A DNA stretch of 64,000 nt from an uncultured virus (IMG/VR IMGVR_UViG_3300042878_002054) (lineage: Duplodnaviria > Heunggongvirae > Uroviricota > Caudoviricetes), in the IMG/VR virus record IMGVR_UViG_3300042878_002054; one strand, written 5' to 3'. Of this stretch, positions 484 through 58,689 are shown piece after piece (position 1 is the first letter of the stretch; the number at the start of each line of letters is the position of its first letter). The translations under genes were made by a program, and so were the position numbers. The notes beneath the pieces were generated by a model. It was not told the origin of the DNA, searched no databases, and saw nothing but the letters and a program-made list of their open reading frames with translations.

Positions 484-3400
484 CTAAACCGGAAATGATA
501 GGTTTATATCAGTAATCCAAATTTGTTTACCTCTTGCAGTGTTTCTATATCCAACAAAAAGCCATACTTTTTTAGTGGCTATTGTAGATCCCCATTGTCC
601 AATCTGCCATCTTAACTGCTTAGTAGCATTTGTTCCGTTGAAGTTGTATGTAGGTTCGTCCATTCTAGCACCCCAAGTGTCAGCGTCTCCAGAAATATAA
701 GCAAACTTGTCTGGTTTTAGATTGTCACCAGTACTATCTAAACCTAATAGTACCACTAAATCTGGTGTTCCATTTAGAGTAAAACTTCCATCAGTGTTGT
801 AAGCTTTTTCCATATCAAGCTCTCTGAAGTTTGCATTAAATGTGAAGAGTGCGTTATTGAATGTTGTACCTGCAACAGAATCTTTTGAATATGATGTAAC
901 GTGCCATTTAAAATCTACAAATGAAGTTGTTGTATAGTCACCACCACCAGCACCAGAGTCTGTAGTACTCAATCCAAGAGCAGTATAGATATCAAAAGAC
1001 TTAGTTACTCCACTTAAACTAGAGTAGTCTACCGTGGCAGTTGTGTTAGCAACTGGAAAATATTCAGTAAAGTTTGTCTGAGGATAAATAACTCTTCCAA
1101 AGATGTACTGAAGCTCATCAGTTGCAGTATTCAATGATATTATGGAACTAAAAGTTGCTGTTCCTAGCTGAGTAGTAGAAGAAGGATGAACTCCTTTATT
1201 TGAAGCACTAGATAGACCAGAAAAAGAAAGTCTTTCACTCTCACTATCCAATGGATTACTGTTATAAGTTACTGGATCTGTTGTATCAGTATCAAAAAGC
1301 ATCTTTTTTACGGATGTTGTAAATGTTGCCGCTAATCCGAAATCGTATATGTTAGATTTTGCATAAGAAAAGTTATTTGTATTCAATGTGTTTACACCTG
1401 ATGCAAAATCAGGAATGTATTGACCAGCCACATTAACGGTGGCAGTTCTTGAGAAAGTAAGTCCTGATTTATTCCAGCTTGCAGTCCACCCTGTTATGAT
1501 AGTACCTACTGAAGTTTTTGTTCCATCGGCGTATCCTTCAAGAGTTCCTGAAATCGCCATATAATAAGCGTCTATATCGATTTGTTTAGTAACAGGAATT
1601 GTTGTATCATTTAGTAAATCTATTCCAGAAACGGTAAATCCAAATGTAGAGCCGGTATCATAATAAGCAACACCTGAATAATATACCAACGCCGAAGTTT
1701 TTTCATCAAATGTGACATTACCAATAGTAGAACTAGAATCTTGTGAATCCGAACCTAAATCTATATCATAGAAAACTGCTGCAGATGAATAAGAGTAGAT
1801 ACCTACAACTGTTGCTGCAACATTGTTGTAACCAGGTCCGACACCATTGTTATCATGTTCTATCTTCCAACTAAATCTTCCACCATAAGGGAATATAGTA
1901 GCAACATCTATAGTTCCAGATACTTTTGCTTTCCATCTATCATTATCTACTGCCCAATCAGTTATTGTAAGTGTCAATCCAGGAGTTGTACTTGTATAAG
2001 CAAAGTCTCCGTTTACTGGAGTTGCTGATATTGATCTCAACACCGTTGCACCGTCTCCAGCATAAAGTGTAAAGGTAATCGATGTAGTGTCACTTGATAA
2101 AGAGAAATAAGAAGAACCTGTTGTAAATGCAGTAAGTGTTGTATTATAAACTTTAACTGAACGTGTAGTTGATGCACTAAAATCTGTTCCTACGTTCCAA
2201 GTACCTATACTATATTCACCAGGTGTTGTTCCTGCTATTAGATTACTTGTAGGATTCATAACATATCTATTTGCATCTCCCGAACCAATAGAGGGTGCAA
2301 AAAAGTTTACATAGTTAGGTGCAGGTATCCAAACCATCACCGATCCAGCCTCTACTGGATTATCTTCTGTTACAAGAACACCAGTTGCAGTAGCACCACT
2401 TGTAGGATGAACAACTACCGTATTTCCTCTGAATATTATGTTGTTTATGTTTCCGAATGTAGCACCAGTTAGATAGTCTTCAACTGTAAGTGAGAATGTT
2501 GGTCCACCACCAGATCCACCAGTTTGGTCTACCCATTGTGTATTGTAGTCTGTTCCATCTATCTTAGACAAAACCTGACCTGATGTACCACCTGAAGGAA
2601 TTCCTATACCGCTTGTTCCTGATGTTCCATCAACACCACTAGTTCCAGATGTTCCATCGATTCCGGAAGTTCCTGATGTTCCATCGATTCCGGAAGTTCC
2701 TGATGTTCCATCGATTCCAGAAGTTCCTGATGTTCCATCAACTCCGGAAGTTCCTGATGTTCCATCAACTCCTGATGTTCCTGATGTTCCCGTAGTTCCA
2801 GATGTTCCCGTAGTCCCAGATGTTCCACTTGTTCCGTCAACTCCCGATGTTCCACTTGTTCCGTCAACTCCTGATGTTCCTGAAGAACCGTCACCACCAG
2901 ATGCACCATCTAAATTCACTACAAATGTAGTTCCGGTCATTGTTCCGGTTGTAGTGACTCCAACTATGGATATTTGTCCTGTTCCTGCATCGTATGATGA
3001 TACGGTTCCTTGTATAAAGTTGTTCGTGTCTTTTGATATTATTATCGATTGAGCGGGACTGTATGCATATTCGGTTCCTATTGTAAGGTTCAAAGGGTCT
3101 GTAGGTGTTATACTACCACTATAGTCATATCTGTATTTGTCTCCTGCATATCCAGAAGTTCCTGATGTTCCTGTTGTACCCGATGTTCCTGTTGTACCCG
3201 ATGTTCCTGATGTTCCTGATGTTCCTGATGTTCCATCGATTCCGGAAGTTCCTGATGTTCCGTCAACTCCAGAAGTTCCTGATGTTCCATCGATTCCGGA
3301 AGTTCCTGATGTTCCATCGATTCCAGAAGTTCCTGATGTTCCATCAACTCCGGAAGTTCCTGATGTTCCATCAACTCCTGATGTTCCTGATGTTCCATCG

Positions 3401-4701
3401 ATTCCAGAAGTTCCTGATGTTCCACTTGTTCCGTCAACTCCTGATGTTCCTGATGTTCCGTCAATTCCTGATGTTCCACTTGTTCCGTCAACTCCTGATG
3501 TTCCACTTGTTCCTGATGTTCCCGTAGTTCCTGATGTTCCGTCAACTCCTGATGTTCCACTTGTTCCGTCAACTCCTGATGTTCCACTTGTTCCTGAAGA
3601 ACCGTCTCCACCAGATGCACCATCTAAGTTTACAATCCATGTTGCAGAAGCGTTTGTAGGAGTTCCTACAACACCACTTGAAAGTGGGTGTAAAGTGTTT
3701 CCTTTTGTGGCACTCATAGTACCAGTTCCTATATTATAAGAAGTTACCGTTGCCTCTATATAGTTTAGACTATCGATTGCAAGTATTATAGATTGTCCTG
3801 GACTATATGCAAGTCCTGCTTCTATAGAAAGTGTCCATGAAGGTTGTGAAGAATCGATAGTAAGTGTGTTTATACTTCTGTATCTATCACTGACTCCAGA
3901 AGTACCCGATGTACCATCTGACCCAGTCGCACCGGTAGCACCAATAGACCCAGTCGCACCGGTAGCACCTTTTGTGAAGGTATCTAATGTTTGTCCTACA
4001 TATTGATATGCGATTGCTCTAAGACCACCATTTACACTCTTTATAAAGTTTATTGCGTCAGCTACTCCGATATTTCTAGCAGCCTCAAACGCCGCCTTAT
4101 CCATTGTATAACCGGAACCATTTCCTAAGTCAATAGGTGTTTTACCAACGTTGAATCTGAATATTCCAGAAAAAGTATCTATGTCATAATATGCATTGTC
4201 ATATGATACAGAATTGAATTTTCCTGCAGTAGTAGGTGCATATAATATAACAGCATATCCTGTAGAAGGTGCTCCTAATAAATCGGGAATATCTGATATA
4301 TTTATTATTGGTTTTACCCATTCATCTGAAGGAATAAACTCACCAAAAGCATTTCCTAAACTAGGTGTACCAGTGTCAAGAAACCAAGATTGGTATAAAG
4401 TATTATGAAGTGGATATAGATAACCAGGTTGTCCTACAAGGTCATTTCCTAATCCGTCATTACCGACAGAACTAACCGTTCCTACTTTTCTTATTATGTT
4501 TGGATATGCGTCAGAATATGCAGAAGCAGAAGCAAAAGTATAAGCAACAGGAACATCGTCCATCCAAACTTCATTGGATCTAACATTATGAGCACTTTTG
4601 TAGTTTTCACTACCTGCATAGTTTCCATCTTTTGTGTTTACCTTACCCAACCAGTGAAAAAAGGCACCTGTTAGCTTACTATCTGGATTTATTATTGGCA
4701 T
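484..4701 (-). CDS. Large virion structural/tail-associated protein with collagen-like G-T-S repeats
   Basis: 1405 aa, Gly/Ser/Thr-rich, two GTSG(V/I)D repeat blocks; C-terminal ~670 aa paralogous to 4749..7778. Confidence 0.7.
2600..2910 (-). repeat. Tandem 9-nt-unit repeat encoding (GTS/GVD/GID/GTT)n, block 2
   Basis: gttcctgat / gttccatc units. Confidence 0.9.
3150..3622 (-). repeat. Tandem 9-nt-unit repeat encoding (GTS/GVD/GID/GTT)n, block 1
   Basis: Same units as block 2; both blocks are preceded by [16 protein letters not shown]. Confidence 0.9.
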
Positions 4702-16056: not shown

Positions 16057-16263
16057 TTATTTAAAGTATGAATTGATTTCAGACTTTTCATCTTCTGACA
16101 ATCCGCTGTATATTTTGGAAAATCTTTCTACTACTTCTGATTCTGTGCTTTCTTCTCCTTTGTGACTAAGTGTCAAGTTATCTGATAGCAAAGTTTTCTT
16201 AGCAACTTCTGGTGCAACCATTGTAGTTTCAAAAAACTTGATGTATTTTTTAATATACTTCAT
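16057..16263 (-). CDS. Small hypothetical protein
   Basis: Starts MKYIKKYIKFFE; AATATAT motif upstream. Confidence 0.7.
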   Translation of the reverse strand: MKYIKKYIKFFETTMVAPEVAKKTLLSDNLTLSHKGEESTESEVVERFSKIYSGLSEDEKSEINSYFK

Positions 16264-16326: not shown

Positions 16327-17433
16327 ATGAAAATATACAATTTCAAAAATTTCATATTAGAGAGACTTGGAGTGGCTTTACCATCGATTGAGTATGCGGA
16401 TGCCATATACAAAAAGACTATAGAAGAGTTAAAATCATTTCTTACAGAACATTCGAGTTATAAAGAGTATTTGAATGATCCTAAGATTTCTACAGAAAAC
16501 TTGAAATCATCAATAGGAACCGAAGAAGAGTATAAAAAGTTTCCAGTAGTAGGAATCACATTAGACTTACATTTCAAAAAGATAGAAGATGATATATTTG
16601 AAGATGAGTTTAATTCAGGAAAGTCACATTCGGTTGGTGGAAGTGCTTATAGGTTTGGACATAAGAACTGGTCAGGATATTCAAAGAAAGTAAAGACCGA
16701 GATTAAAGACCTTCCATTTGGTATAAACCTGCTTATTGGAATCGAAGTTTACATACCTAAAAGCTATAAGATTGAACAAGACGAAAAACTTGAAGATACT
16801 CTTATGGAAACAATATATCACGAACTGAATCATCTATATGAGTATTATGGTAGACTTGTAAATCAAAAGGGACTACCTATATACAAAAGAAGTCCAAAGC
16901 TTGCTATAACTTATGCAGACGTAAATAGATGGAAGATACCAAATGATGTTTATTCTATATGGTCTAATGATTTAGTCTATAATTTCTATCTATCAGAGCC
17001 TTATGAGATAAACGCACAAGTTCAAGAAGCCGCTTATACCGTAATGAAACACGGATTCGAACGACTTTTCGAAACAGAGGCTTGGAAGAACGCAATTTTG
17101 ATGACAAGATTCAGCGCTGAAGATTTCATAGAAATGCTCGACTCTACAATCGACGAATATATTTCGACAAAAGGACCTGAAAGAACAGGGCTTTACTCAG
17201 GAGTATTGGCTCTTCCATTAAAAGAAAGGCTTAAAGAAATGTGGCTTAAAGAGTATCAAAAGCAATTCGAATATGAAAAGGAAGGACCAAGCATTGACTT
17301 TGAAAGACTAAAGAAAAATGATTGCAACTACTTCATAAAGTATATGGGTAAGAGAATAAACAAAGCTGGTACAAAACTAAAGACAAAGCTTGGGAAGCTT
17401 TACGATTTTGCAGAAAAGAAAAATAATATATAA
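16327..17433 (+). CDS. Putative zincin metalloprotease-domain protein
   Basis: TIYHELNHLYE (HExxH) plus downstream EPYEINAQVQE; starts MKIYNFKNFILE. Confidence 0.6.
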   Translation: MKIYNFKNFILERLGVALPSIEYADAIYKKTIEELKSFLTEHSSYKEYLNDPKISTENLKSSIGTEEEYKKFPVVGITLDLHFKKIEDDIFEDEFNSGKSHSVGGSAYRFGHKNWSGYSKKVKTEIKDLPFGINLLIGIEVYIPKSYKIEQDEKLEDTLMETIYHELNHLYEYYGRLVNQKGLPIYKRSPKLAITYADVNRWKIPNDVYSIWSNDLVYNFYLSEPYEINAQVQEAAYTVMKHGFERLFETEAWKNAILMTRFSAEDFIEMLDSTIDEYISTKGPERTGLYSGVLALPLKERLKEMWLKEYQKQFEYEKEGPSIDFERLKKNDCNYFIKYMGKRINKAGTKLKTKLGKLYDFAEKKNNI

Positions 17434-17454
17434 TAAAAACTAATCAAAAAACAG

Positions 17455-17997
17455 ATGAAGAAATTTTCAGACTTAAAAAAACCTAAAATAAGAAGAATAT
17501 TCGAGCAAGACGAAATGTCTGTAGCAAACCTACCACAAGCAGTAGGTGCACAAGTACAGGCTCAAGCTCAGGCAGAACAAGAAAGTGGTGTTGAAAGACC
17601 ACAAATATTAGGAGAAGGTTCACACCCAGGTAAATTTTTCTCTAAATTGTTTGAATCTAGAGAAATGGCACACATTTATCACTTACAAGTAAATGGTGAT
17701 ATGGGTTCACATGCAAAACATATTGCATTAGGTGAATACTACGATGGTGTTTTAAGTTTAATCGATGATGTGATTGAGACATATCAAGGTCAATATGGTA
17801 TTATCGAAGAGTATGATGTGATTGATACTAAAGATACTAAATCAAAAGATACTATTGAATATTTTAATGAGTTAGCAAGATTTGTCAAAGAAGAAAGAAA
17901 ATGTATCAATATAGAAGATACTCACCTACATAGTGTAATAGATGATATTGTTGTTCTGGTTTACAAAACTCTTTATAAGCTTAAATATACTAAATAA
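17455..17997 (+). CDS. Dps/ferritin-like four-helix protein of T4-like phages
   Basis: AHIYHLQV...HIALGEYYD...IDDVIETYQGQYG...KTLYKL. Confidence 0.7.
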   Translation: MKKFSDLKKPKIRRIFEQDEMSVANLPQAVGAQVQAQAQAEQESGVERPQILGEGSHPGKFFSKLFESREMAHIYHLQVNGDMGSHAKHIALGEYYDGVLSLIDDVIETYQGQYGIIEEYDVIDTKDTKSKDTIEYFNELARFVKEERKCINIEDTHLHSVIDDIVVLVYKTLYKLKYTK

Positions 17998-18012
17998 AAG
18001 TATTATTATATC

Positions 18013-18042
18013 AGAAAAGCCTACTCTTCAGTAGGCTTTTCT
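18013..18042. terminator. Bidirectional terminator
   Basis: AGAAAAGCCTACT-CTTC-AGTAGGCTTTTCT. Confidence 0.8.
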
Positions 18043-18254
18043 ATTTTGTATATCTTTTCTATTCTTGATTTTCTTCTCCAGTTCTTCATCCAGAAATCCA
18101 TATAGAATCCGTTGTTTACGGTTGTAGTTGAATATCTACTTTTAAGTGTCATTCTTGGTGAGAAATTGCTTTCTACTATTGCAGGTGTTGTACTTTGTAT
18201 TAGATAAGGAGCCCAGACTACTCCCGGACTATTTCCTTTCTTTCCTATCAGCAT
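18021..18254 (-). CDS. 77-aa protein resembling the C-terminal segment of a gp23-type major capsid protein, with C-terminal tag
   Basis: IGKKG..PGVVWAPY...NFSPRMTLKSRY resembles gp23 VGYKG..AGIYYAPY...NFQPVMGFKTRY; ends RKSRIEKIY. Confidence 0.65.
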   Translation of the reverse strand: MLIGKKGNSPGVVWAPYLIQSTTPAIVESNFSPRMTLKSRYSTTTVNNGFYMDFWMKNWRRKSRIEKIYKIEKPTEE

Positions 18255-18333
18255 TGAATATTCTTTCTATTTTTATTATTCTAAGTATATTTCTAAACTC
18301 AGAACCGAACTTCTTCTTTTTGAATTTTCCCAT
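18229..18333 (-). CDS. 34-aa tagged micro-protein (not in ORF track)
   Basis: MGKFKKKKFGSEFRNILRIIKIERIFNADRKERK*. Confidence 0.55.
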   Translation of the reverse strand: MGKFKKKKFGSEFRNILRIIKIERIFNADRKERK

Positions 18334-18472
18334 CAAATATCTTTCTTATCTTTTTGATTCTTTTCTGGGACCTAAACATTGTTCCGATATTGGGGTTGAA
18401 TTTCATATTTTCCCATTTATTACTGGAAGGGCCTCCCATTACGACTAGATTAGGATCTGGAGCACAAAACAT
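18299..18472 (-). CDS. 57-aa tagged micro-protein (not in ORF track)
   Basis: MFCAPDPNLVVMGGPSSNKWENMKFNPNIGTMFRSQKRIKKIRKIFDGKIQKEEVRF*. Confidence 0.6.
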   Translation of the reverse strand: MFCAPDPNLVVMGGPSSNKWENMKFNPNIGTMFRSQKRIKKIRKIFDGKIQKEEVRF

Positions 18473-18581
18473 TGTTTATCTTTTCTTTTCGTTTGTCTTT
18501 TCTCAACATCTTAGAAAATGCTCTAATTCCTTCAAGAATTGTTTTCTTCGTCGTTTCCGAGTGATTGTCCCAAATCGCCAT
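18450..18581 (-). CDS. 43-aa tagged micro-protein (not in ORF track)
   Basis: MAIWDNHSETTKKTILEGIRAFSKMLRKDKRKEKINNVLCSRS*. Confidence 0.6.
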   Translation of the reverse strand: MAIWDNHSETTKKTILEGIRAFSKMLRKDKRKEKINNVLCSRS

Positions 18582-18684
18582 ATATTCTTTCTATTTTTTC
18601 TTTTCTTAAAAGGTTTCGTATGGCTTTCCAATCTATTTCGAATATCGGACTTAGATAGTCACCATCATCATTAATCACTGCCAT
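18532..18684 (-). CDS. 50-aa tagged micro-protein (not in ORF track)
   Basis: MAVINDDGDYLSPIFEIDWKAIRNLLRKEKIERIYGDLGQSLGNDEENNS*; AAAC-N17-TATAA directly upstream. Confidence 0.65.
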   Translation of the reverse strand: MAVINDDGDYLSPIFEIDWKAIRNLLRKEKIERIYGDLGQSLGNDEENNS

Positions 18685-18689
18685 ACTTA

Positions 18690-18715
18690 TTATATCCGTA
18701 TAGTATTATTTGTTT
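18690..18715 (-). promoter_or_regulatory. Putative phage middle promoter AAAC-N17-TATAA
   Basis: The same motif precedes the helicase, DinG, polB and the ncRNA locus. Confidence 0.55.
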
Positions 18716-19026
18716 TCAGTATAAAGATATTTTCTACCATCGTCGTTGTAACTCTGAAGGTTTCCAATAACGGTGTCTGTTTTGTCTGTAGAGTTTTCTA
18801 AATCTTTCATTATAACCTGAAGGGCCGCGATTGAATCGTCTATTTGATCGTTTCCTTTGTCGGATTTGTTTTTATAGTTGTTTAACTCGCTAATCAAAGA
18901 ATCTATCATCTTTTTCTTATCATCTAAAGTAGATGTAAGTTCTTTCAAATCGACTAATATCTCATCAACTCTTTCTGTCGATACGTCAACTTGTTCACTT
19001 TCGTTAAATCTTTTGATTCTTTTCAT
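18706..19026 (-). CDS. Coiled-coil hypothetical protein
   Basis: Starts MKRIKRFNESE; heptad pattern. Confidence 0.75.
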   Translation of the reverse strand: MKRIKRFNESEQVDVSTERVDEILVDLKELTSTLDDKKKMIDSLISELNNYKNKSDKGNDQIDDSIAALQVIMKDLENSTDKTDTVIGNLQSYNDDGRKYLYTENK

Positions 19027-19042
19027 TTTTAAATATTAGATT

Positions 19043-19058
19043 TTAATATATATATTAA
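19043..19058. promoter_or_regulatory. Divergent late-promoter-like palindrome TTAATATATATATTAA
   Basis: Lies between the divergent genes starting at 19026(-) and 19060(+); contains AATATATA on both strands. Confidence 0.55.
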
Positions 19059-19059
19059 T

Positions 19060-19743
19060 ATGAAAAAGAGAAATAAACTAATTCTAGAATTCACAGAGTT
19101 TAATATGCAAAGGTTGAACCCAGATTCGGTACAAGCATCTATGCATGTTGATGATCCTTCTCTATCAACAAATGCATTTGATAAACACCAGGATGCGATA
19201 AGACAAGCAATGTCAAGAGTAAATGATATACTTTGGAATCTAACTGGTTCTAATGCATACAAAAATCTTAGAGGTAAGCTTGCATTAGAGAATCAAGACA
19301 TAAAGAGTATGAAAATACTCAGAATAACAAAGGTAAATGGTATAAACTACGATGTGTATGTAACATTTGTTATTGGAGACAACGAATATTGGGGAGTCAT
19401 AAATGGAATACTTACCTCAGATCCAGAACTTGAATCAGAAGTGTTTAAAGATTATGACCTATATCAAGCAAAAGAATGGATAATAAAAATAAAAGGTTTG
19501 GTCATAAAGACTATAAAAGCTTGGATGAAACCAGAACCAGGAAAATACAAATTGATAAATGATGAAGTAATCTGTTTCTCAATAGAAACAGGAAGACAGT
19601 TAGAAATGAAAAAAGGTATTGAAATAGAGGTTGTAAGAGCATATGATAATAGAATCGTAGTACGACACGAAAGTGAGACTTATAACTTAGTAGGAGACAA
19701 CTTTGTTTATTTCAACTGGTGGTTCGAAAATATAGATAAATAA
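19060..19743 (+). CDS. Hypothetical protein
   Basis: 227 aa; N-terminal KLILEFTEF motif. Confidence 0.75.
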   Translation: MKKRNKLILEFTEFNMQRLNPDSVQASMHVDDPSLSTNAFDKHQDAIRQAMSRVNDILWNLTGSNAYKNLRGKLALENQDIKSMKILRITKVNGINYDVYVTFVIGDNEYWGVINGILTSDPELESEVFKDYDLYQAKEWIIKIKGLVIKTIKAWMKPEPGKYKLINDEVICFSIETGRQLEMKKGIEIEVVRAYDNRIVVRHESETYNLVGDNFVYFNWWFENIDK

Positions 19744-19773
19744 AAAAACCCGTTCAAAAGAACGGGTTTTTTT
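19742..19773. terminator. Bidirectional terminator
   Basis: AAAAAAACCCGTTC-AAAA-GAACGGGTTTTTTT. Confidence 0.9.
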
Positions 19774-21764
19774 TATTTTGCTTCTAAGATTTCTATCTTT
19801 TTGTTTAGCTCTTGTATAGACTTTATTAAGACAGGTATTATTCCATTGTAGTCTAATGCCTTTATCTCTCTATCACCATCCATAGAAGTGTTTACAAGCT
19901 CTTTAAGAACTTCCTCAACTTCTTGTGCAATCAAACCTATAGAAGGTGTTGTAGAGTCACTATAAAGCCAAGTATGGGTAACAGGGTTAAGTCTCAATAC
20001 TTCATTAAGACCATATTCAAGTGGAATAATGTTTTCTTTTTGATTTCTATCAGAAAGTCTGTAGTAAGTTCCATCGGGCCAGATATAAGCTTTGGCGGCC
20101 TTTGTACCACCAATATCACTATAGAAGTGACAGATGGCATAACCACCAATCGTAGTAGGTCTATAGATCTCAAGGCTGTTTGTTCTTGTAGTTCCTTCTA
20201 TTCTAGTACTATCACCAAATATATAAGCTAGGTTAGAGACTTTAGGAAGTCTTATTTCTGTATCTGATATAGTAAGTACTTTTTTGTTATTGGCAACAAT
20301 TCCAATCTTTCCTATAGACTCTAAAAAGAATCCTGTATTTTTACCTTGTGCCTTATCACTATCAAAACATATAGATGGTGCGTTTTCACTACCTGATAAT
20401 ATTTGAAGTCCTCTATCGGTAAAGTAAGCAATAGTTTTAGAACCATTATCAAATCTTGCAGAAACCGTATTGGGCCCACCACCTGATCTAACAATCAAAC
20501 CATGTCCCATTGAAGGATTTGAGTTGTATATGTCACATCCGTAAGCACCATTTAGAAATGGAGATCCAGAACTTCCTGCAACACCACCAGTGAATGTGTT
20601 AACAACAGAACCAACGTTTGTCGCGATTATAGTACGACCATGTGTGTCCAAATTTATCATATGTCTTCTTCCATCAGTAGGTGCAGAAATATTAGCATCA
20701 AAATGTGCAGTTGTCTGAGGATATGTAACCGTGGCAGTACCTGCAAGATTTTCTATAATAAGATCTCTTAATGGACCACCATTAAATAAACCTGAAAATC
20801 CAATAGATCCACTCATTATAGAATCACCGTTTAGTCCATATAGTGCGGTGAATGGTCTTCCTCCACTATTAAGAACTTTCAATGTTGATTCGGTGTTAGA
20901 AGTAGACTTTATAAGTACTCCATTTTCTGTAAATCTCATCTTTTCTTTACCAGCTGCCGATATACCAAGCATATTCCATCCAGCTCTATAGATTCCTGTG
21001 CTATTATTAGTAGAAAATGCAACAGATGGATTTGCCTCACTTCCATTAGGAACTTGAAGCTGTGCACCCTCAGTCGTACCTACTCTTGGTATGAATTTAA
21101 AAGAATCTCCACCAGTTGTTTGATAGTATTTAGTTACACCACCAGTTGTTGAAACAAACGGTACATACAAAACATTTGTAGAATTTGAAAAAGTATCTGG
21201 TTGAGGTGCTGCAGAAGGAATTTGATTTGCAGGAATAGAACTTAGTGCCATCCACTCTGGAGTGGAAGTTCCTGATTTCAATATGTATATTTCGCCAGTA
21301 GTTGGACTATCTTTTGGAGATAGTTTACTTACTGCGATAGGACCAGTTATGTTCGATCCTAAAATGTTTGTAATATCTGTTCCTAATCCTCTAAAGCCGG
21401 TGGCTTGAACAATACCAGCAACTTTTAAAGCATGTAGTGTGTAGTTTCCGGTGGCGATATTTACATATTTCTCAGTAGGACCAACAGTAAACTGTGATAT
21501 TAAACTATTTGTTATTTGAGAAGTACTAGTATCAAAAGTAGGTATATAACCTGTTGTAGTTGTTCCTGTTATTGTAACCGTACTACTATTTTCACTTGTC
21601 CATATAGTACCATTCCAAACATATGGTTGGTTTGCCACTATATCATATACTCTAAGACCATTGTATTTATAAACAATGGCATTTCTAGAGGCAGTACCTG
21701 AAGTGACTAATCTATCATCTATTGGTTGTGCAGTATTTACTGTGAATCCATCTATTATTTGCAT
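19773..21764 (-). CDS. Tail fibre protein with C-terminal intramolecular chaperone (peptidase S74-like)
   Basis: LSDRNQKENI...LNPVTHTW...IGLIAQEVEEV...LDY..IIPVLIKSIQEL; GS..NPS/APS fibre motifs. Confidence 0.85.
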   Translation of the reverse strand: MQIIDGFTVNTAQPIDDRLVTSGTASRNAIVYKYNGLRVYDIVANQPYVWNGTIWTSENSSTVTITGTTTTGYIPTFDTSTSQITNSLISQFTVGPTEKYVNIATGNYTLHALKVAGIVQATGFRGLGTDITNILGSNITGPIAVSKLSPKDSPTTGEIYILKSGTSTPEWMALSSIPANQIPSAAPQPDTFSNSTNVLYVPFVSTTGGVTKYYQTTGGDSFKFIPRVGTTEGAQLQVPNGSEANPSVAFSTNNSTGIYRAGWNMLGISAAGKEKMRFTENGVLIKSTSNTESTLKVLNSGGRPFTALYGLNGDSIMSGSIGFSGLFNGGPLRDLIIENLAGTATVTYPQTTAHFDANISAPTDGRRHMINLDTHGRTIIATNVGSVVNTFTGGVAGSSGSPFLNGAYGCDIYNSNPSMGHGLIVRSGGGPNTVSARFDNGSKTIAYFTDRGLQILSGSENAPSICFDSDKAQGKNTGFFLESIGKIGIVANNKKVLTISDTEIRLPKVSNLAYIFGDSTRIEGTTRTNSLEIYRPTTIGGYAICHFYSDIGGTKAAKAYIWPDGTYYRLSDRNQKENIIPLEYGLNEVLRLNPVTHTWLYSDSTTPSIGLIAQEVEEVLKELVNTSMDGDREIKALDYNGIIPVLIKSIQELNKKIEILEAK

Positions 21765-46204: not shown

Positions 46205-47047
46205 TTAAATAGCGATTTCTAGTTTTGACGAAAGTTTTTGTATTCCTTCAATCCCAGATATTTTAAAATCGTCTATGGTTATAGAGTAAAAGTCACGATT
46301 TGTTGTTATGATTAATAACTCTATAGAAGGATTTACATCAGTAAGGTTAGTTCTACCCAATATTTCTGGTATTGAGTCTACGTGTCTATCATAAACGTGT
46401 AGGTTTTGAACTAAATGACAGAACTTACCTACTTTATATCCTACGTGATGTGCAACCATCATTTGAAGTGCAACATACTGAATCTTATTGATATAACCTG
46501 CCATTAGATAGTCATTAGAACGCTGATCTAAAGTCATATCTAAATAGTATTCACCTTCTATTTTTCTTACAGACCAAGTAGTCTTGTATGCACAAGGAAA
46601 CAATCCTTCAGTTTCTTCTAAATCAGTATATTGGTACATATCGATGATGTGTCTTCTAGAAAATGGATCGTTCTTCAATCCGTTCAAAAGCTTGTTCATC
46701 AAATCATATCTTTTTACTGTAGCACCATATCTTTGACCGATTGTGTCATCACCTACATTCCATTCATCCCACCAGTTGATTCCCATCTCTCTAGCTTCAA
46801 CCAAAGAGTTAGATTGTTTTTGATAGATCCAAAGAATCTCTCTGATTCCTGTTTTGATTGCGGTGTTTCTCAAAGTAGTGATTGGAAACTCACCTTTTGA
46901 AATATCATATTCTTCGAATACTCCTGTTATAAACTTTGAGTTTGCCGGAGTTCCGTCAGCCCATTTTGGACGAGGATTTTCATCCCAAGATCCTTCTTTT
47001 AAAATCTTTCTTAGGTTTTGGATATAGTACCAGTCTGCTTTTATCAT
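46205..47047 (-). CDS. thyA: Thymidylate synthase
   Basis: FPITTLR, EILWI, WWDEW, IGQRYG, SRRHI, LFPCAY, QRSND, NLHVYDRH. Confidence 0.95.
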   Translation of the reverse strand: MIKADWYYIQNLRKILKEGSWDENPRPKWADGTPANSKFITGVFEEYDISKGEFPITTLRNTAIKTGIREILWIYQKQSNSLVEAREMGINWWDEWNVGDDTIGQRYGATVKRYDLMNKLLNGLKNDPFSRRHIIDMYQYTDLEETEGLFPCAYKTTWSVRKIEGEYYLDMTLDQRSNDYLMAGYINKIQYVALQMMVAHHVGYKVGKFCHLVQNLHVYDRHVDSIPEILGRTNLTDVNPSIELLIITTNRDFYSITIDDFKISGIEGIQKLSSKLEIAI

Positions 47048-47601
47048 TCTAATAGTGTTTTTATTTTTTCATCTCTTATGAAAGCTTTGATGAAGTCGTT
47101 TGCGATTACATCGTTTATTATAGCATAAGAACGTCCTTTGTTATATTTAGTTTGAAGAAAATAGTTTTTTGAATCGGTGATTTCCTCAGAAAAATTAAAT
47201 AAAGGAATAGAGGAACTATCACTACATGTAGCTATCTTTCTTACCGGAATCTTATCTAAAAAGTTGATATATTTCTTAGTTGTGGTGTCGTTATTTGGAA
47301 ATAGATAATCATATAGATAATCAATATCGTCTATGAATATAAAGTCTATTCCATCTTTTAAAGAAATCTCTTCTATTACTTTGAGTGTATTTATATTGTT
47401 TTCGTCGTCAGAGGATAAAAATCGACATAACTCGTATCTTTGATTAAGAAAGTGTGTTTTCTCTTCAAATTCGTTTGTAGCTGCCAAAAATATTATTTTC
47501 ATGTTTAGTTGAGACTTCATATCATAAGCAAGTGCATGCAACGCAGAGCTTTTCCACGTAGCATTACTACCTACTATTATATTGAAGTTATTTTCAAACA
47601 T
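47044..47601 (-). CDS. Degenerate RecA/DnaB-like P-loop fold protein with C-terminal tag
   Basis: IIVGSNATWKSS (altered Walker A), IDFIFIDDIDYL (Walker B-like); ends IRDEKIKTLLE. Confidence 0.55.
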   Translation of the reverse strand: MFENNFNIIVGSNATWKSSALHALAYDMKSQLNMKIIFLAATNEFEEKTHFLNQRYELCRFLSSDDENNINTLKVIEEISLKDGIDFIFIDDIDYLYDYLFPNNDTTTKKYINFLDKIPVRKIATCSDSSSIPLFNFSEEITDSKNYFLQTKYNKGRSYAIINDVIANDFIKAFIRDEKIKTLLE

Positions 47602-48389
47602 TATTTATAAGGACAATTTTGTTTCCATTTAGGGTTATACCAAAAAGTTCTTCCGGTGTTGTCTCTACATGATAAGCCTTTCTGATAGAATACCCATTTG
47701 AGGAACTCTTCATAGTCTGTATCGAACGGATTCTTCCAATCTTGTAGCTGACCACCATTGAGTTGGTAAGCTTTCATCGGAATATCTCTACACATGTCAA
47801 GTATCTCTGGATTTCTTTTTATGACTAAGCGAGCTTCCTCAAAAGGATCAACATCAAGATAGTAAAGAATCGTCGATCTCAAATAGTTTCCAATCCCGTT
47901 AAAGTACTTCTGTTCTAAAAGAGCTTCACAGATTGGTTTACTGAAAGGCTTCAGATGAAGATTGTCTACGACGTTGGTTTTAAAGGTTTCAAACTCTTTA
48001 GTTGGGTCCGGACCTCTTTTTGTAGCAAATCCACCTACTTTGTATTTTGGTCCCATATAGAGGCCGTAAAGAAGTAAAGACCAGCCATCGGTTGTATCCA
48101 TTCGCATTCTGACAAACTTTCTATCAGTCCAATCTTTGGTGGGTATCCAGAGCCAGTTCCCTGACATTCCCATAAAGACGGATATCTTAAAAGATGCAAC
48201 ATCATGATATACTTTTAATACTAATTCTTTACCATTAGATTCAGATTCAAGACGGAAATCTCCATCTGCAAGTGTAAATTCCGAAGGAATATTGCCTTTC
48301 GCTACATCGTATATCTTGTTGAATTTCTTTTCTTTGGCATTGACGTTTATATAGTCAGCCATTATTTTTAATTCTGCTAATTCAGGCAT
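47601..48389 (-). CDS. Fpg/Nei-family DNA glycosylase (NEIL1-like)
   Basis: MPELAE, GKEL, MGMSG, LLEQKYFNGIGNYLR (H2TH), DNTGRTFWY. Confidence 0.9.
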   Translation of the reverse strand: MPELAELKIMADYINVNAKEKKFNKIYDVAKGNIPSEFTLADGDFRLESESNGKELVLKVYHDVASFKISVFMGMSGNWLWIPTKDWTDRKFVRMRMDTTDGWSLLLYGLYMGPKYKVGGFATKRGPDPTKEFETFKTNVVDNLHLKPFSKPICEALLEQKYFNGIGNYLRSTILYYLDVDPFEEARLVIKRNPEILDMCRDIPMKAYQLNGGQLQDWKNPFDTDYEEFLKWVFYQKGLSCRDNTGRTFWYNPKWKQNCPYK

Positions 48390-48636
48390 CTAATATGTCG
48401 TTTATTTTTTCGTTTCTTATCAAGTCTTGGTTTAGCTCAATGAGTTCTCTTAGTGATATTTCTCTAGTTACCCATCTACCATGACCAGCATCACTTGTAC
48501 CGGGATTCTCTGTTCCAAACCAAACAACACATTTTGTTCGTTCGTATGTAATATATAGCCCATTGAATTCAGTCTCCATAGAAACCAATATTCCTTCACC
48601 ATATGGTGTGTTTACTTTACTATGTATTCTTAACAT
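48382..48636 (-). CDS. Small SH3-like hypothetical protein with C-terminal tag
   Basis: KVNTPYGEGILV; ends IRNEKINDILDA. Confidence 0.7.
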   Translation of the reverse strand: MLRIHSKVNTPYGEGILVSMETEFNGLYITYERTKCVVWFGTENPGTSDAGHGRWVTREISLRELIELNQDLIRNEKINDILDA

Positions 48637-54092: not shown

Positions 54093-54650
54093 TTATTTGT
54101 TGAAAATATCGTCGATTTTTTTATCACGGATATATCCAGTCTTTAAAGAATCAAGTGTTGCTGTCCAACCATCAATTTTATTTGTTAGCCAAATTTCTGA
54201 TCTAGTGGCCATATAGCCAGAAATACTATTAGGTGCCGAATCTTTGTATTCTGACTTTACATGAAAGTCTGCAACATCTTCAGAGTCTTTATAGATGTAT
54301 TCTTTTGCTACTATTATATAGTCTATACCTAACTCGTCGATTAGTTCTTTGTATTTAGGTATAAGACCCCGACTAAGAGTCCAAAAGTCAAATATCATTA
54401 GATTAACTCTGAATCTATTTGCGGGATCTTCAATCTTAGATTTAAAATCTTCAAAGTCATTAAAAGTTATCTGTGGTGATATGTAATAAATAAGATTTGT
54501 GATGTTTTTTCCTGAAGAAGTTGGTTTTGGTGATGTGAACAATATAGGATTTCTACCATCTAATTCCAAAAATTTAACAATAGAACTTACTGCACTTGAA
54601 ACACATGCTATGTCTCCAGTAAAATAATTACAACGCTTTAGCTCTATCAT
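54093..54650 (-). CDS. Hypothetical protein (possibly degenerate P-loop fold) with C-terminal tag
   Basis: NLMIFDF Walker-B-like strand; ends IRDKKIDDIFNK. Confidence 0.65.
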   Translation of the reverse strand: MIELKRCNYFTGDIACVSSAVSSIVKFLELDGRNPILFTSPKPTSSGKNITNLIYYISPQITFNDFEDFKSKIEDPANRFRVNLMIFDFWTLSRGLIPKYKELIDELGIDYIIVAKEYIYKDSEDVADFHVKSEYKDSAPNSISGYMATRSEIWLTNKIDGWTATLDSLKTGYIRDKKIDDIFNK

Positions 54651-55095: not shown

Positions 55096-55857
55096 ATGGG
55101 ATTCAATTATAATTTCACCTATATAATCAGTTATAGACATAGTGTAGAAAGACTGAATAATCTAAAAAGAACATTGGAGTGGATAAACGCTTTTTCCGGT
55201 GCAGAGATTATTATAGTAGAACAGGACAAGCATTCAAAGCTTAAAGACATCAAATTACCATGTAGACATATTTTTATAAAATCAAACATGCCTTTCAACA
55301 AGTCTTGGGGATTCAATGTAGGATTAAAATATGCGAATTCAAACGTAATAGTATTTGGTGATTCTGATTTGATAATGGACCCACAAGAGTTTATCAAATC
55401 TGTAAAGATGTTAGACCAATACGAGATGGTCAATCCTTATAACTCTGTTATTGACCTAACTCCACAAGAATCTGGTGCCGGTTTTGAACAGATAATGCAA
55501 ATCAACAGAGCAGGTAGAGGAGAAACTGATATTCAGAAAGTTCCTTTATGTGGTGGAATCTGTATCTTTAGAAGAGAAGCTATACATAAGATTGGTGGAT
55601 GGCACGAGGACTTTATCGGTTGGGGCGGAGAAGATGATTTTCAGTCAGTTAAGGTAAAAGCATTCTTAAACTGGTATGAAAATAAAGCAAAATGTTTCCA
55701 TATCTATCACGATAGATCTGCACCAGATATGAAATGGTATCAAAGAAATCTTCAACTTCTTCAAAAACTTAGTCCAATGAATAAAGAAGAGTTGCAAAAA
55801 GTGATAAACAACGTCACTCCAAAATCAGGTTTGAAATACAAATATGACAACTTTTAA
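55096..55857 (+). CDS. Glycosyltransferase (GT2/GT7 galactosyltransferase-like)
   Basis: IIVEQ, FNKSWGFNVG, DSD, GGWHEDFIGWGGEDDF, HIYH. Confidence 0.88.
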   Translation: MGFNYNFTYIISYRHSVERLNNLKRTLEWINAFSGAEIIIVEQDKHSKLKDIKLPCRHIFIKSNMPFNKSWGFNVGLKYANSNVIVFGDSDLIMDPQEFIKSVKMLDQYEMVNPYNSVIDLTPQESGAGFEQIMQINRAGRGETDIQKVPLCGGICIFRREAIHKIGGWHEDFIGWGGEDDFQSVKVKAFLNWYENKAKCFHIYHDRSAPDMKWYQRNLQLLQKLSPMNKEELQKVINNVTPKSGLKYKYDNF

Positions 55858-56578
55858 TGATAAACTAAAATCAATCTGTAACTACTCTGAAGAAAATAAG
55901 AGTATAGGTCCAACTGCCCAATTGATGTATATGGATATGATAGTAGAAGACGACGAGACTAGAAGAGAGGTAAAGAGAAAGAAAAGAAATCTTACAATAG
56001 ACACCGTTTTAGATGAGGTAGACGAAAACGGAGACTACACATCTGAGACAATATCTTCAGAAGAAGGATCTATTGCGACAATATCTCCAAAGATCATGAC
56101 TCTAAATACTCAATCAAATCCTTTTGTAGATGATGAGAGTTTATACAATAATGTAATCACATTTTTAGAAAGTAACACAAAACAAAAACACCATTATCCA
56201 ATAAGTCTTGATTATGTGGCGATGAACGACCCACATAGTACATTAGAGGAAAACAACGCAATAAACTTCAGAAGGATTATAACAAAGATTGCACACGCAT
56301 CCAACTTTATCGCAGCAGAAGGAAGAATGGGTCCAGGAACCGCAGTGATTGTCGGTAGAAATAACTGGCATTGGTTCGATAGTCAATCAGATTTTATGCT
56401 TGGAACTATTTCTATTATATTAGATGAAAACATTAGTCCAAATAAGATTATAGTCGCTCGTGGTGGTAGAATGGATCAGAGTGGTATTATATGTGTAAAA
56501 AGTATACCAGATAATACTTATTGTCTAAAAGAAACTCCACATTGGGAAAAACAATATGTATGGTTTACTGTAAAATAA
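55844..56578 (+). CDS. Protein resembling a truncated gp23-type major capsid protein with an internal tag
   Basis: IGPTAQLMYMD; KRNLTIDTVL; FRRIITKIAHASNFIAAEGRMGPGTAVIVGRN; IILDE....KIIVARGG...SGII. Confidence 0.55.
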   Translation: MTTFNDKLKSICNYSEENKSIGPTAQLMYMDMIVEDDETRREVKRKKRNLTIDTVLDEVDENGDYTSETISSEEGSIATISPKIMTLNTQSNPFVDDESLYNNVITFLESNTKQKHHYPISLDYVAMNDPHSTLEENNAINFRRIITKIAHASNFIAAEGRMGPGTAVIVGRNNWHWFDSQSDFMLGTISIILDENISPNKIIVARGGRMDQSGIICVKSIPDNTYCLKETPHWEKQYVWFTVK

Positions 56579-57205: not shown

Positions 57206-58477
57206 TTAAAAAAGGTGAAATTCCTCATAAAGCTTTGTTTTGAATATGGCTTCGACCTCATCTCTTTTATTTCTTGGTATTATTATACTATCGTGAACAG
57301 TAACTATTTTTATTTCTGGAAAAGAATTTTTAACTTCTCGTATTATTTTATTGAAGATTAAATTAGACTCTGCTTTTTGTAGTTCATATGCCAAAACTTT
57401 ATAGTCTCCTTTTTCCTTTTTGTATAGTTTTATGAAATTGTGTATAGTTGGAAATAGTTCTCTGAACACTTTGTCTGCTTTGCTATTGTGAACGTTTCTT
57501 CCAAATAAGACTTTGTACGTCATTTCTTTGACCATAGGACGATCATTTGTCTTCATATGATTCATTACGTGTTGGTAGTAGTTTCCGTTTACCGTAAGGT
57601 CTCTAAATAGCTCAAACTCCTCGGTGTTTACCCATTTAGAGTTACTATCTGCTATTATCTTAGTAAGGAACAAAGGTTGACTATTCTTTATGTCAATCTC
57701 ATGTGTTTCCTCACCATCCAATAAAAGACAGTTCTTTCTAATGAAAGATTTTAATATAGTGAAGTTTGTGTGCATTCTTCCGTAACTATCAAAATGATAG
57801 AATATATGTTTGTCGTTCACACATTCAACAGAGTATCTGTTTCTGTTATATATGTCAGTGTCGTTGTGTTGAAGATTATCTAAATAGAATATGGCTCTAT
57901 CAAACTCTATCTTTGTATAGAATAGGTCGTCTACAAGCATCGCTTTTATATCTGCGTCTATTAATCCATTTTTTATTCCATCTTCTTCTACTTGTGATAC
58001 CTTGTTTTTGTACTTCTTCAAAAGAGTCGTGTCTTTGTTGACGTATCTCTTTATTTTTCCTTTAAGTATGTGTTCTGATATCTTATAGACTTTGGCGTTT
58101 CTACCTGCTCTATAGTTTGCGACCATAGATATGGTCTTCGTTTCTATTAGATAGTCCATATAGTAGTTGTATAGGTGTCCGTACTTCTCTTTGAGAATGG
58201 TGGACATGAGATGAAATCTGTTGTCTTTTTTGAAATAGTATTTCAGTATTAAGTTGTGGACTATATCTAAAGCATATGAAGACTTTAGTTTTTGACCTTT
58301 ATATTCGAAGTTTTTGTTTTTTGAAAATTCCTCCATCGATTCTGGTAAAAACTGAAGACTGTGTTTTTTGTCTTCTAGTTTCTTTCTGATATTGGAATAG
58401 CCACTGATTTTGAATAATGGTACGATTGAATTTTCACTCATACATTTTATATCCACTAGTTCAGGATATGTTTTCAT
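57206..58477 (-). CDS. Compact PolA/T7-RNAP-like palm-domain protein with putative N-terminal winged helix
   Basis: YGRMHT, EIDIKNSQP, R..VK...YKVLFG, FPTI, LQKAES, VTVHDSII. Confidence 0.55.
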   Translation of the reverse strand: MKTYPELVDIKCMSENSIVPLFKISGYSNIRKKLEDKKHSLQFLPESMEEFSKNKNFEYKGQKLKSSYALDIVHNLILKYYFKKDNRFHLMSTILKEKYGHLYNYYMDYLIETKTISMVANYRAGRNAKVYKISEHILKGKIKRYVNKDTTLLKKYKNKVSQVEEDGIKNGLIDADIKAMLVDDLFYTKIEFDRAIFYLDNLQHNDTDIYNRNRYSVECVNDKHIFYHFDSYGRMHTNFTILKSFIRKNCLLLDGEETHEIDIKNSQPLFLTKIIADSNSKWVNTEEFELFRDLTVNGNYYQHVMNHMKTNDRPMVKEMTYKVLFGRNVHNSKADKVFRELFPTIHNFIKLYKKEKGDYKVLAYELQKAESNLIFNKIIREVKNSFPEIKIVTVHDSIIIPRNKRDEVEAIFKTKLYEEFHLF

Positions 58478-58689
58478 GATTCGTAAATTTTGCGAACCTT
58501 TGATCTTCTACCTGAAGTTCTGTTAATATCCTTCCATTCTTTCATAAGAGTTGCCTCTATTTCAGAGACATGGTCCATACCATACATACTCTGTAAATCA
58601 GTCGCTAGCTCGCGGGTCCATTGAGCACGCAAAGGTCTTGTCTCTGTTTTTACTTCAACAGAGGTCATCTTTAAATCTATAGATTTCAT
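58474..58689 (-). CDS. 71-aa protein resembling the central helix segment of a gp23-type major capsid protein, with C-terminal tag
   Basis: TRPLRAQWTRELATDLQSMYGMD..SEI...L..E...INR resembles gp23 SRQLKAAYSIELAQDLRAVHGMDADAEL..IL..EI..EINR; ends RRSKVRKIYES. Confidence 0.75.
   Translation of the reverse strand: MKSIDLKMTSVEVKTETRPLRAQWTRELATDLQSMYGMDHVSEIEATLMKEWKDINRTSGRRSKVRKIYES

Follow-up and report, generated by a model that had tools for sequence, protein, structure and literature searches.

A conserved mini-gene of a huge phage that probably joins a fragment of the major capsid protein to a basic C-terminal helix

On the minus strand of the window, by which we mean the whole stretch of 64,000 nucleotides analyzed here (uncultured Caudoviricetes virus, IMG/VR record IMGVR_UViG_3300042878_002054), lies an array of five overlapping mini-genes, hereafter designated A to E, the last of which resembles the gp23-type major capsid protein, abbreviated as MCP. 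The term tag is used for a C-terminal amphipathic helix motif of the form h-R-x-x-K-I/L-x-x-I/L-L/F, and payload for the part of each protein that stands before it. The array and its surroundings comprise the following features:

18706-19026: 106-aa coiled-coil-like gene, upstream of mini-gene A
18532..18684, minus strand: mini-gene A, 50 aa, with tag, first of the array (dN/dS 0.19)
18450..18581, minus strand: mini-gene B, 43 aa, with a weaker, tag-like tail (dN/dS 0.26)
18299..18472, minus strand: mini-gene C, 57 aa, with tag (dN/dS 0.21)
18229..18336, minus strand: mini-gene D, 34-35 aa, with tag (dN/dS 0.11)
18021..18254, minus strand: ORF E, 77-aa mini-gene with an ATG start, made of an MCP C-terminal fragment and the tag helix
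18114..18254, minus strand: payload of ORF E, aa 1-47 (hhalign, PDB alignment, dN/dS 0.23)
18024..18083, minus strand: tag region of ORF E, aa 58-77, a nearly invariant basic tail (alignment, dN/dS 0.06, AlphaFold2 helix at aa 48-72)
18013..18042, no strand: 13-bp perfect hairpin with a terminator-like score on the plus strand

The window has a G+C content of about 33% and carries genes for tail fibres, ribonucleotide reductase, a DnaB-type helicase, DNA polymerase and thymidylate synthase. Out of 50,697 phage records, just two are related to it at the DNA level, LR745206.1 (635 kb) and LR756502.1 (642 kb), and genomes of 634-735 kb form the Mahaphage clade with predicted Bacteroidetes hosts, as stated in an excerpt of the published description (PMC7162821). 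Twenty lake-water DNA runs each contain at least 97% of the words sampled from the region, and the source is a huge, Mahaphage-type phage of lake water. The neighbours of the ORF E locus are a DUF5856/Dps-like gene, the coiled-coil-like gene and a tail-fibre gene, with no head genes among them, while the hairpin spans the final codons and stop of ORF E and sits between two convergent genes. An Rfam scan of positions 17000-20000 returned only sub-threshold terminator-like matches, none reaching the gathering score, and no endonuclease family was matched among the locus ORFs (16327-21764); a scar of an intron or homing endonuclease at the locus was rejected on these two results. The promoter scan found 12 sites against 13.1 in shuffled sequences, that is, no excess.

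A preliminary description of this DNA had taken 18021-18254 for a capsid-protein fragment and proposed a profile search against Gp23. This search did find MCP similarity: ORF E matches PF07068 (Gp23) with an E value of 1.2e-4 and 22.1 bits, under the curated gathering cut-off of 24.4 bits, its residues 2-63 covering profile positions 304-368 of 376. Gp23 is the sole Pfam family obtained for ORF E at E<=10, and a precomputed PF07068 match is carried by many of its 69 relatives. The identification as a capsid-protein fragment is further supported by phrog_138 'major head protein' (E 0.0037), by tblastn matches to 123 phage records, many at annotated MCP genes, and by a hidden Markov model built from 42 huge-phage MCPs, which among 1204 six-frame ORFs of the window gave only three matches at E<=1: ORF E (4.1e-9), an ORF at 55844-56578 (3e-9) and another at 58.5 kb (0.68). 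Alignment of the ORF E family with the huge-phage MCPs by hhalign gave a probability of 97% and an E value of 4.6e-11, placing residues 1-47 on MCP 492-540 of 560 (numbering of the LR745206.1 MCP). Searches of the ESM Atlas produced chance-level matches only, and among viral contigs there was neither an exact 44-mer match nor a relative by profile search.

The four matches of a PDB profile search with ORF E are all T4 gp23 chains, individually weak (E 0.63-0.73), and fall on about residues 444-479 of 521, the same gp23 stretch that the preliminary description had quoted. In an excerpt of the structural literature, gp23 residues 486-502 are given as the A-P linker (PMC9546572), and by that account the stretch copied by ORF E immediately precedes it. 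The position of the payload is thus consistent with the earlier assignment to the P-domain, the placement coming from alignment rather than from structure-based mapping of the domains. ORF E has no complete HK97 fold: it is 77 aa long, corresponds to Gp23 profile positions 304-368 of 376 only, and shows no folded domain in AlphaFold2. Because the model has a mean pLDDT of 55 and a helix at aa 48-72 as its sole secondary structure, the payload probably needs a partner. Compared with T4 gp23 and gp24 (PF07068; PDB 5vf3, 6uzc, 8gmo, 8t9r), the payload has its homologue in the C-terminal strand segment of gp23, and like gp24 it is an old MCP paralogue retained in the same genome. Unlike gp23, it is reduced to about 47 residues out of some 520-560 and lacks an HK97 fold of its own, and it is set apart from MCPs in general by the added C-terminal helix, which they lack.

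A word-indexed search with ORF E retrieved 69 protein clusters of 51-80 aa and 55-94% identity; in an alignment of 33 of these there is more variation in the payload than in the tail, which hardly varies. A HMMER search of 1.84 billion representatives with the ORF E profile returned 118 clusters at E<=1e-3, namely 100 of at most 150 aa and 18 longer ones, the latter mostly MCPs matched at their C-terminus. By regular expression, the loose form of the tag (defined below) lies within 15 aa of the end in 59 of the 100 small clusters and inside the payload in 10; three contain DPYGEE and 30 are without tag, about seven of these 30 looking by eye like true MCP ends. With 100 small clusters at 50% identity, these micro-proteins form a large and conserved class that is undescribed. 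Neither capsid-fragment mini-genes nor such tags turned up in our literature searches, the string DPYGEE occurring in unrelated papers only. Standard annotation misses such micro-proteins or mislabels them as capsid genes.

The dN/dS of ORF E is 0.23 in the payload and 0.06 in the tag, and an ORF E counterpart, about 40% identical, is located at the equivalent position of the huge phage LR745206.1, whose genome is complete. Pooled values for A to E range from 0.11 to 0.26 in the annotated frames (0.06 for the E tag) versus 1.06-3.15 in the other two frames. We consider it very probable that ORF E is a genuine selected gene combining an MCP C-terminal strand segment with a basic helix, the last of five mini-genes. 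The same values bear on the idea that such fragments are functionless, dead remnants of an MCP gene that was duplicated or shuffled by endonucleases. This would fit the scattering of fragments of one gene across the genome and the presence, near the counterpart in LR756501.1, of an ORF resembling a LAGLIDADG endonuclease by eye; however, the selection tests contradict it (dN/dS 0.23 versus more than 1 in other frames), the small clusters number 100 at 50% identity, the ORF remains intact between the same neighbours at 40% identity, and the window locus has neither endonuclease nor intron, so that we give this explanation almost no credence.

The mini-genes follow each other from A to E along the minus strand, every ORF lying in the +1 frame with respect to its predecessor and the ATG of each next mini-gene being placed right after the tag of the preceding one; the final 26 nt of D overlap the start of E. 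A scan of metagenomes yielded 18 loci, of which two (L061 and L062) have a bacterial-looking, unrelated context and were set aside as chance matches. All five ORFs with identical +1 stagger and ATG positions are found in 12 of the 18; the array of L047 is cut at the contig end, and L050, L052 and L060 present other combinations of ORFs, E being broken in L060. LR745206.1 has counterparts of C and E only, located between the same coiled-coil-like and DUF5856 genes, with the C counterpart immediately preceding that of E. In a codon-position test comprising the window and 10 metagenome loci, third positions are the most variable in every non-overlapping part of A to E, whereas in the A/B and C/D overlaps the coding pattern belongs to the downstream frame from its ATG on, which implies that the functional end of the upstream proteins is the tag itself. 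The micro-ORF array noted earlier around ORF E thus consists of five overlapping mini-genes, all under purifying selection.

Alternatively, the regular stagger could mean that ribosomes translate a single gene by a programmed +1 shift, or a hop, at each of its four junctions, with the basic tag providing a nascent-peptide signal. T4 gene 60 is expressed by translational bypass with a nascent-peptide signal, and mobile endonucleases can split genes; the array resembles both situations in its run of frame breaks with a basic peptide before each, every ORF being exactly +1 relative to its predecessor and the same basic peptide preceding each junction. It differs from them by its conserved starts, frame-specific selection and variable sets of ORFs, which indicate separate genes: the four downstream ATGs are kept in all full-array loci, the coding signature switches at the downstream ATG in the A/B and C/D overlaps, the stop of ORF A shifts among loci (49-54 aa), and LR745206.1 holds two ORFs only while L050, L052 and L060 have other combinations. 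Moreover, the tag occurs on about 60 unrelated ORFs and on E, which has nothing downstream. Contigs from RNA libraries, which extend over portions of the array, run uninterrupted through each of the four junctions, though they may stem from DNA carry-over and are no proof of transcription. A single frameshifted gene is, in consequence, exceedingly unlikely. We also considered the payloads of A to E as the colinear C-terminal half of an MCP cut by tag insertions, and dropped this possibility since hhalign of the tagless payloads A to D against the MCP was insignificant (P 0.3-0.6), the best spots being scattered at 279-286, 361-372, 488-499 and 540-547.

To follow the tag beyond the array, a strict regular expression was derived from the tags of the window, together with the looser form R-x-x-K/R-I/L-x-x-I/L-F/L/I/Y. 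In LR745206.1 the strict expression has nine matches, eight of them at the C-terminal end of ORFs of at most 90 aa; 10 simulated genomes have 0.7 matches on average and never more than 2. The looser one gives 66 matches, 60 of which lie within 8 aa of the ORF end versus 8.3 expected; the tagged ORFs, 36-738 aa long and including an MCP-like ORF of 243 aa, correspond to roughly 6-10% of the likely genes and are scattered genome-wide without clustering with the MCP gene. In the window, four of the five matches to the looser form are C-terminal, namely that of ORF E and those of three ORFs that belong to no Pfam or PHROG family and whose tails read I-R-D/N-x-K-I-x-x-L/I-L/F:

47044..47601, minus strand: 185-aa ORFan with the general tag form at its end
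48382..48636, minus strand: 84-aa ORFan with the general tag form at its end
54093..54650, minus strand: 185-aa ORFan with the general tag form at its end

The domain scan covered 39 tagged proteins, comprising 36 of the 60 from LR745206.1 (at least 90 aa, within one locus) and three from the window; none had a Pfam match above cut-off, and only one of the 36 from LR745206.1 matched a PHROG, a family of unknown function. The observation that ORF E is fused to a tag, and that the same kind of tail ends a fragment at 58.5 kb, is borne out. However, the tag extends more widely than was seen then and is not special to capsid payloads, because some 60 ORFs of every size end in it in LR745206.1.

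The conserved positions of the tag are spaced helically (1, 4, 5, 8, 9), and its conserved residues are encoded by mixed synonymous codons in genome-like proportions (CGN beside AGR, CTN beside TTR). The constraint therefore bears on the peptide, and the tag is a peptide signal rather than a nucleotide signal. The tag cores of E (18024-18083) and C (18335-18376), compared in 11 loci, are nearly invariant at synonymous sites too, a conservation that goes beyond peptide selection alone, and so an additional constraint at the RNA or DNA level, or gene conversion, is possible. If the tag were the by-product of a nucleotide signal, such as the translation start or promoter of the next gene within the 3' end of the upstream gene, the silent-site conservation of the C and E cores would be expected, as would the frequent location of the next ATG within or right after the tag, ATGA-type overlap being the commonest spacing. 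Yet the reading frame of the motif and its distance from the stop never vary, the helical pattern and the mixed synonymous codons recur at its conserved positions, and no gene lies downstream of the tag of ORF E. In addition, the 735-kb phage LR756501.1 has a different peptide at the same position. Altogether these properties render the by-product explanation very unlikely.

In LR756501.1 the tag motif has a single match, which is not C-terminal. This genome contains instead 109 motifs of the DPYGEE type (DPYGEE-x-W), 41 of them no more than 8 aa away from an ORF end and 21 in the first 40 aa, and both its ORF E counterpart and the preceding ORF end in such a motif. Derivation of the tag from an MCP helix was also tried and rejected: the tags point weakly to MCP 327-345 with insignificant E values of 0.2-0.5, and the five tags are not independent.

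Two further pieces derived from MCP are present in the window:

58474..58689, minus strand: second tagged MCP fragment, 71 aa (Gp23 E 1.3e-9, profile positions 132-187)
55844..56578, plus strand: 244-aa protein, third MCP-derived piece (MCP model E 3e-9)

The 58.5-kb fragment is a spine-helix piece with a tag-like tail, the counterpart of which in LR745206.1 has the same neighbours and is tagged too. As had been described, it represents a different part of the MCP from the 18-kb fragment (Gp23 profile 132-187 versus 304-368). In 55844-56578 the MCP-like part is formed by the C-terminal ~110 residues (about 56270-56497), equivalent to MCP 412-508 in the A-domain region; no tag was found on this protein, and its counterpart with the same neighbours lies at 225174-224362 of LR745206.1. 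The latter genome encodes one full MCP and ORFs copying MCP 8-119, 32-102, 343-534, 180-219 and 339-370, so that the N-terminal region is also copied. In LR756501.1 an ORF of 181 aa has a sub-threshold match to prohead protease (S77, E 1.1e-5) and a DPYGEE-type tail.

All three pieces of the window (18 kb, 58.5 kb and 55844-56578) have counterparts in LR745206.1 surrounded by the same neighbouring genes, their own identity being 32-45%, whereas the 120 MCPs listed against that of LR745206.1 share 74-99% identity with it; between ORF E and the MCP segment the identity is about 40%. A tree of the 44 shared columns (80 rows), which is poorly resolved, separates 41 of the 52 small proteins, on one side, from all 23 full-length MCPs; the remaining 11 small proteins fall with the MCPs and, judged by eye, comprise seven true MCP gene ends and four tagged proteins. 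We take the MCP fragments to be old, diverged paralogues and not recent copies of the resident gene, because of these shared neighbourhoods, of the identities of 32-45% against 74-99% for MCPs, and of the separate side of the tree. The pattern had previously been interpreted as repeated, independent capture of capsid segments. This is not supported, as the fragments are old, have kept their neighbourhoods and group apart from true MCPs; tree and identities speak rather for one or a few old origins.

What might a tagged MCP fragment do? The tag may serve as a shared docking or address handle, and its most likely target would be the assembling head, either the scaffold or the inner MCP surface. 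The payload could then act by mimicry, joining or competing for the sheet contacts made by the same MCP strands, which would make the ORF E protein a small regulator of head assembly or an accessory to it. To this explanation as a whole, in which the selected gene, the handle and the mimicry of head assembly are taken jointly, we assign a probability of roughly 0.4. The link to the head is hinted at by the tagged head-protein pieces (the spine-helix piece at 58.5 kb and the 243-aa MCP-like ORF of LR745206.1), the S77-like ORF, the copies of the MCP N-terminus and an N-terminal leader described below. Against it stand the non-head neighbours of the locus, the dispersion of the tagged ORFs, the absence of any Pfam or PHROG tie to the virion, the lack of significant MCP likeness in payloads A to D and the silent-site conservation in the tag cores of C and E.

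Two known systems offer parallels. Internal proteins of T4 carry N-terminal capsid-targeting sequences, which resemble the tag as a short terminal peptide common to unrelated small proteins in phages with T4-type head genes; the tag, however, is C-terminal rather than N-terminal, and with about 60 carriers per genome it is far more frequent than in T4. Cargo proteins of encapsulins carry C-terminal cargo-loading peptides that dock inside an HK97-fold shell. The tag, likewise, is short and conserved and stands at the very C-terminus of proteins that are otherwise unrelated (60 of 66 in LR745206.1), while differing in motif sequence and in belonging to a phage capsid, not a nanocompartment, with docking to the shell being putative in our case.

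The leader M-K-x-I/L/Y-K-x-F is present on 91 of 1048 ORFs of LR745206.1, compared with 0.56% of internal Met positions, and on eight of the 90 ORFs of the window with at least 60 aa, including 16057-16263, 16327-17433, 17455-17997 and 18706-19026. We take this leader to resemble the T4 capsid-targeting sequence. ORF E is without it and begins directly with the MCP-like segment, and only one of the 60 tagged ORFs of LR745206.1 combines leader and C-terminal tag.

Two other roles can be envisaged for the tagged mimics. They might absorb or blind host defences that sense the MCP, the tag delivering them to a common place or partner. The payload does copy a highly conserved MCP segment, its disorder in isolation is expected of a peptide acting when bound, and the tagged proteins are lineage-specific ORFans, typical of conflict genes; nevertheless, neither a defence sensor nor a target is known to us in these hosts, a faithful copy should set off a sensor just as readily as block it, and the identity between the payload and the resident MCP type is no more than about 40%. 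Such an immune decoy seems unlikely. The mimics could also be dominant-negative poisons directed against the capsids of related rival phages (superinfection exclusion), or could time the assembly of the phage itself by slowing it. One mimic might affect many rivals, given MCPs of the clade that are 74-99% identical to that of LR745206.1, and the fragments cover strands and helices of the HK97 core, but the phage's own MCP would suffer too, and we regard this role as distinctly improbable.

Returning to the handle on the assembling head, its broadest version would be a proteome-wide address system, in which a lineage-specific terminal helix marks dozens of mini-proteins for a single destination, the cargo including mimics of individual structural elements of head proteins (MCP hairpin, spine helix, A-domain, N-arm, prohead protease) that either steer the assembly or size of large capsids or are injected against capsid-sensing immunity. 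We put this forward tentatively, as possible though doubtful. Should the tag prove to be an address label, it would represent a sorting signal of a new kind, carried by 6-10% of genes in the largest phages known, and a first handle on dozens of current ORFans. Capsid mimics made of a single strand or helix would, if true, constitute a new viral way to regulate or protect capsid assembly, and the short tag is a candidate tool for loading cargo into phage heads.

A few side observations were made in the course of the analysis. Within positions 2001-4000 of the window the G+C content rises up to 0.43; the region lies in a tail-fibre gene of 1405 aa (484-4701, minus strand) and has collagen-like tail-fibre PHROG matches. 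The tagged MCP-fragment ORFs of LR756501.1 (L002, 1543-2343 and 2695-3240) are in one frame with TAA between them, two genes downstream of the ORF resembling by eye a LAGLIDADG homing endonuclease. Finally, the MCP of Prevotella phage Lak-C1 (L003, 1366-3201) appears under translation table 11 as two ORFs of 427 and 163 aa with a gap, a split that presumably fits the known stop-codon recoding of Lak phages.
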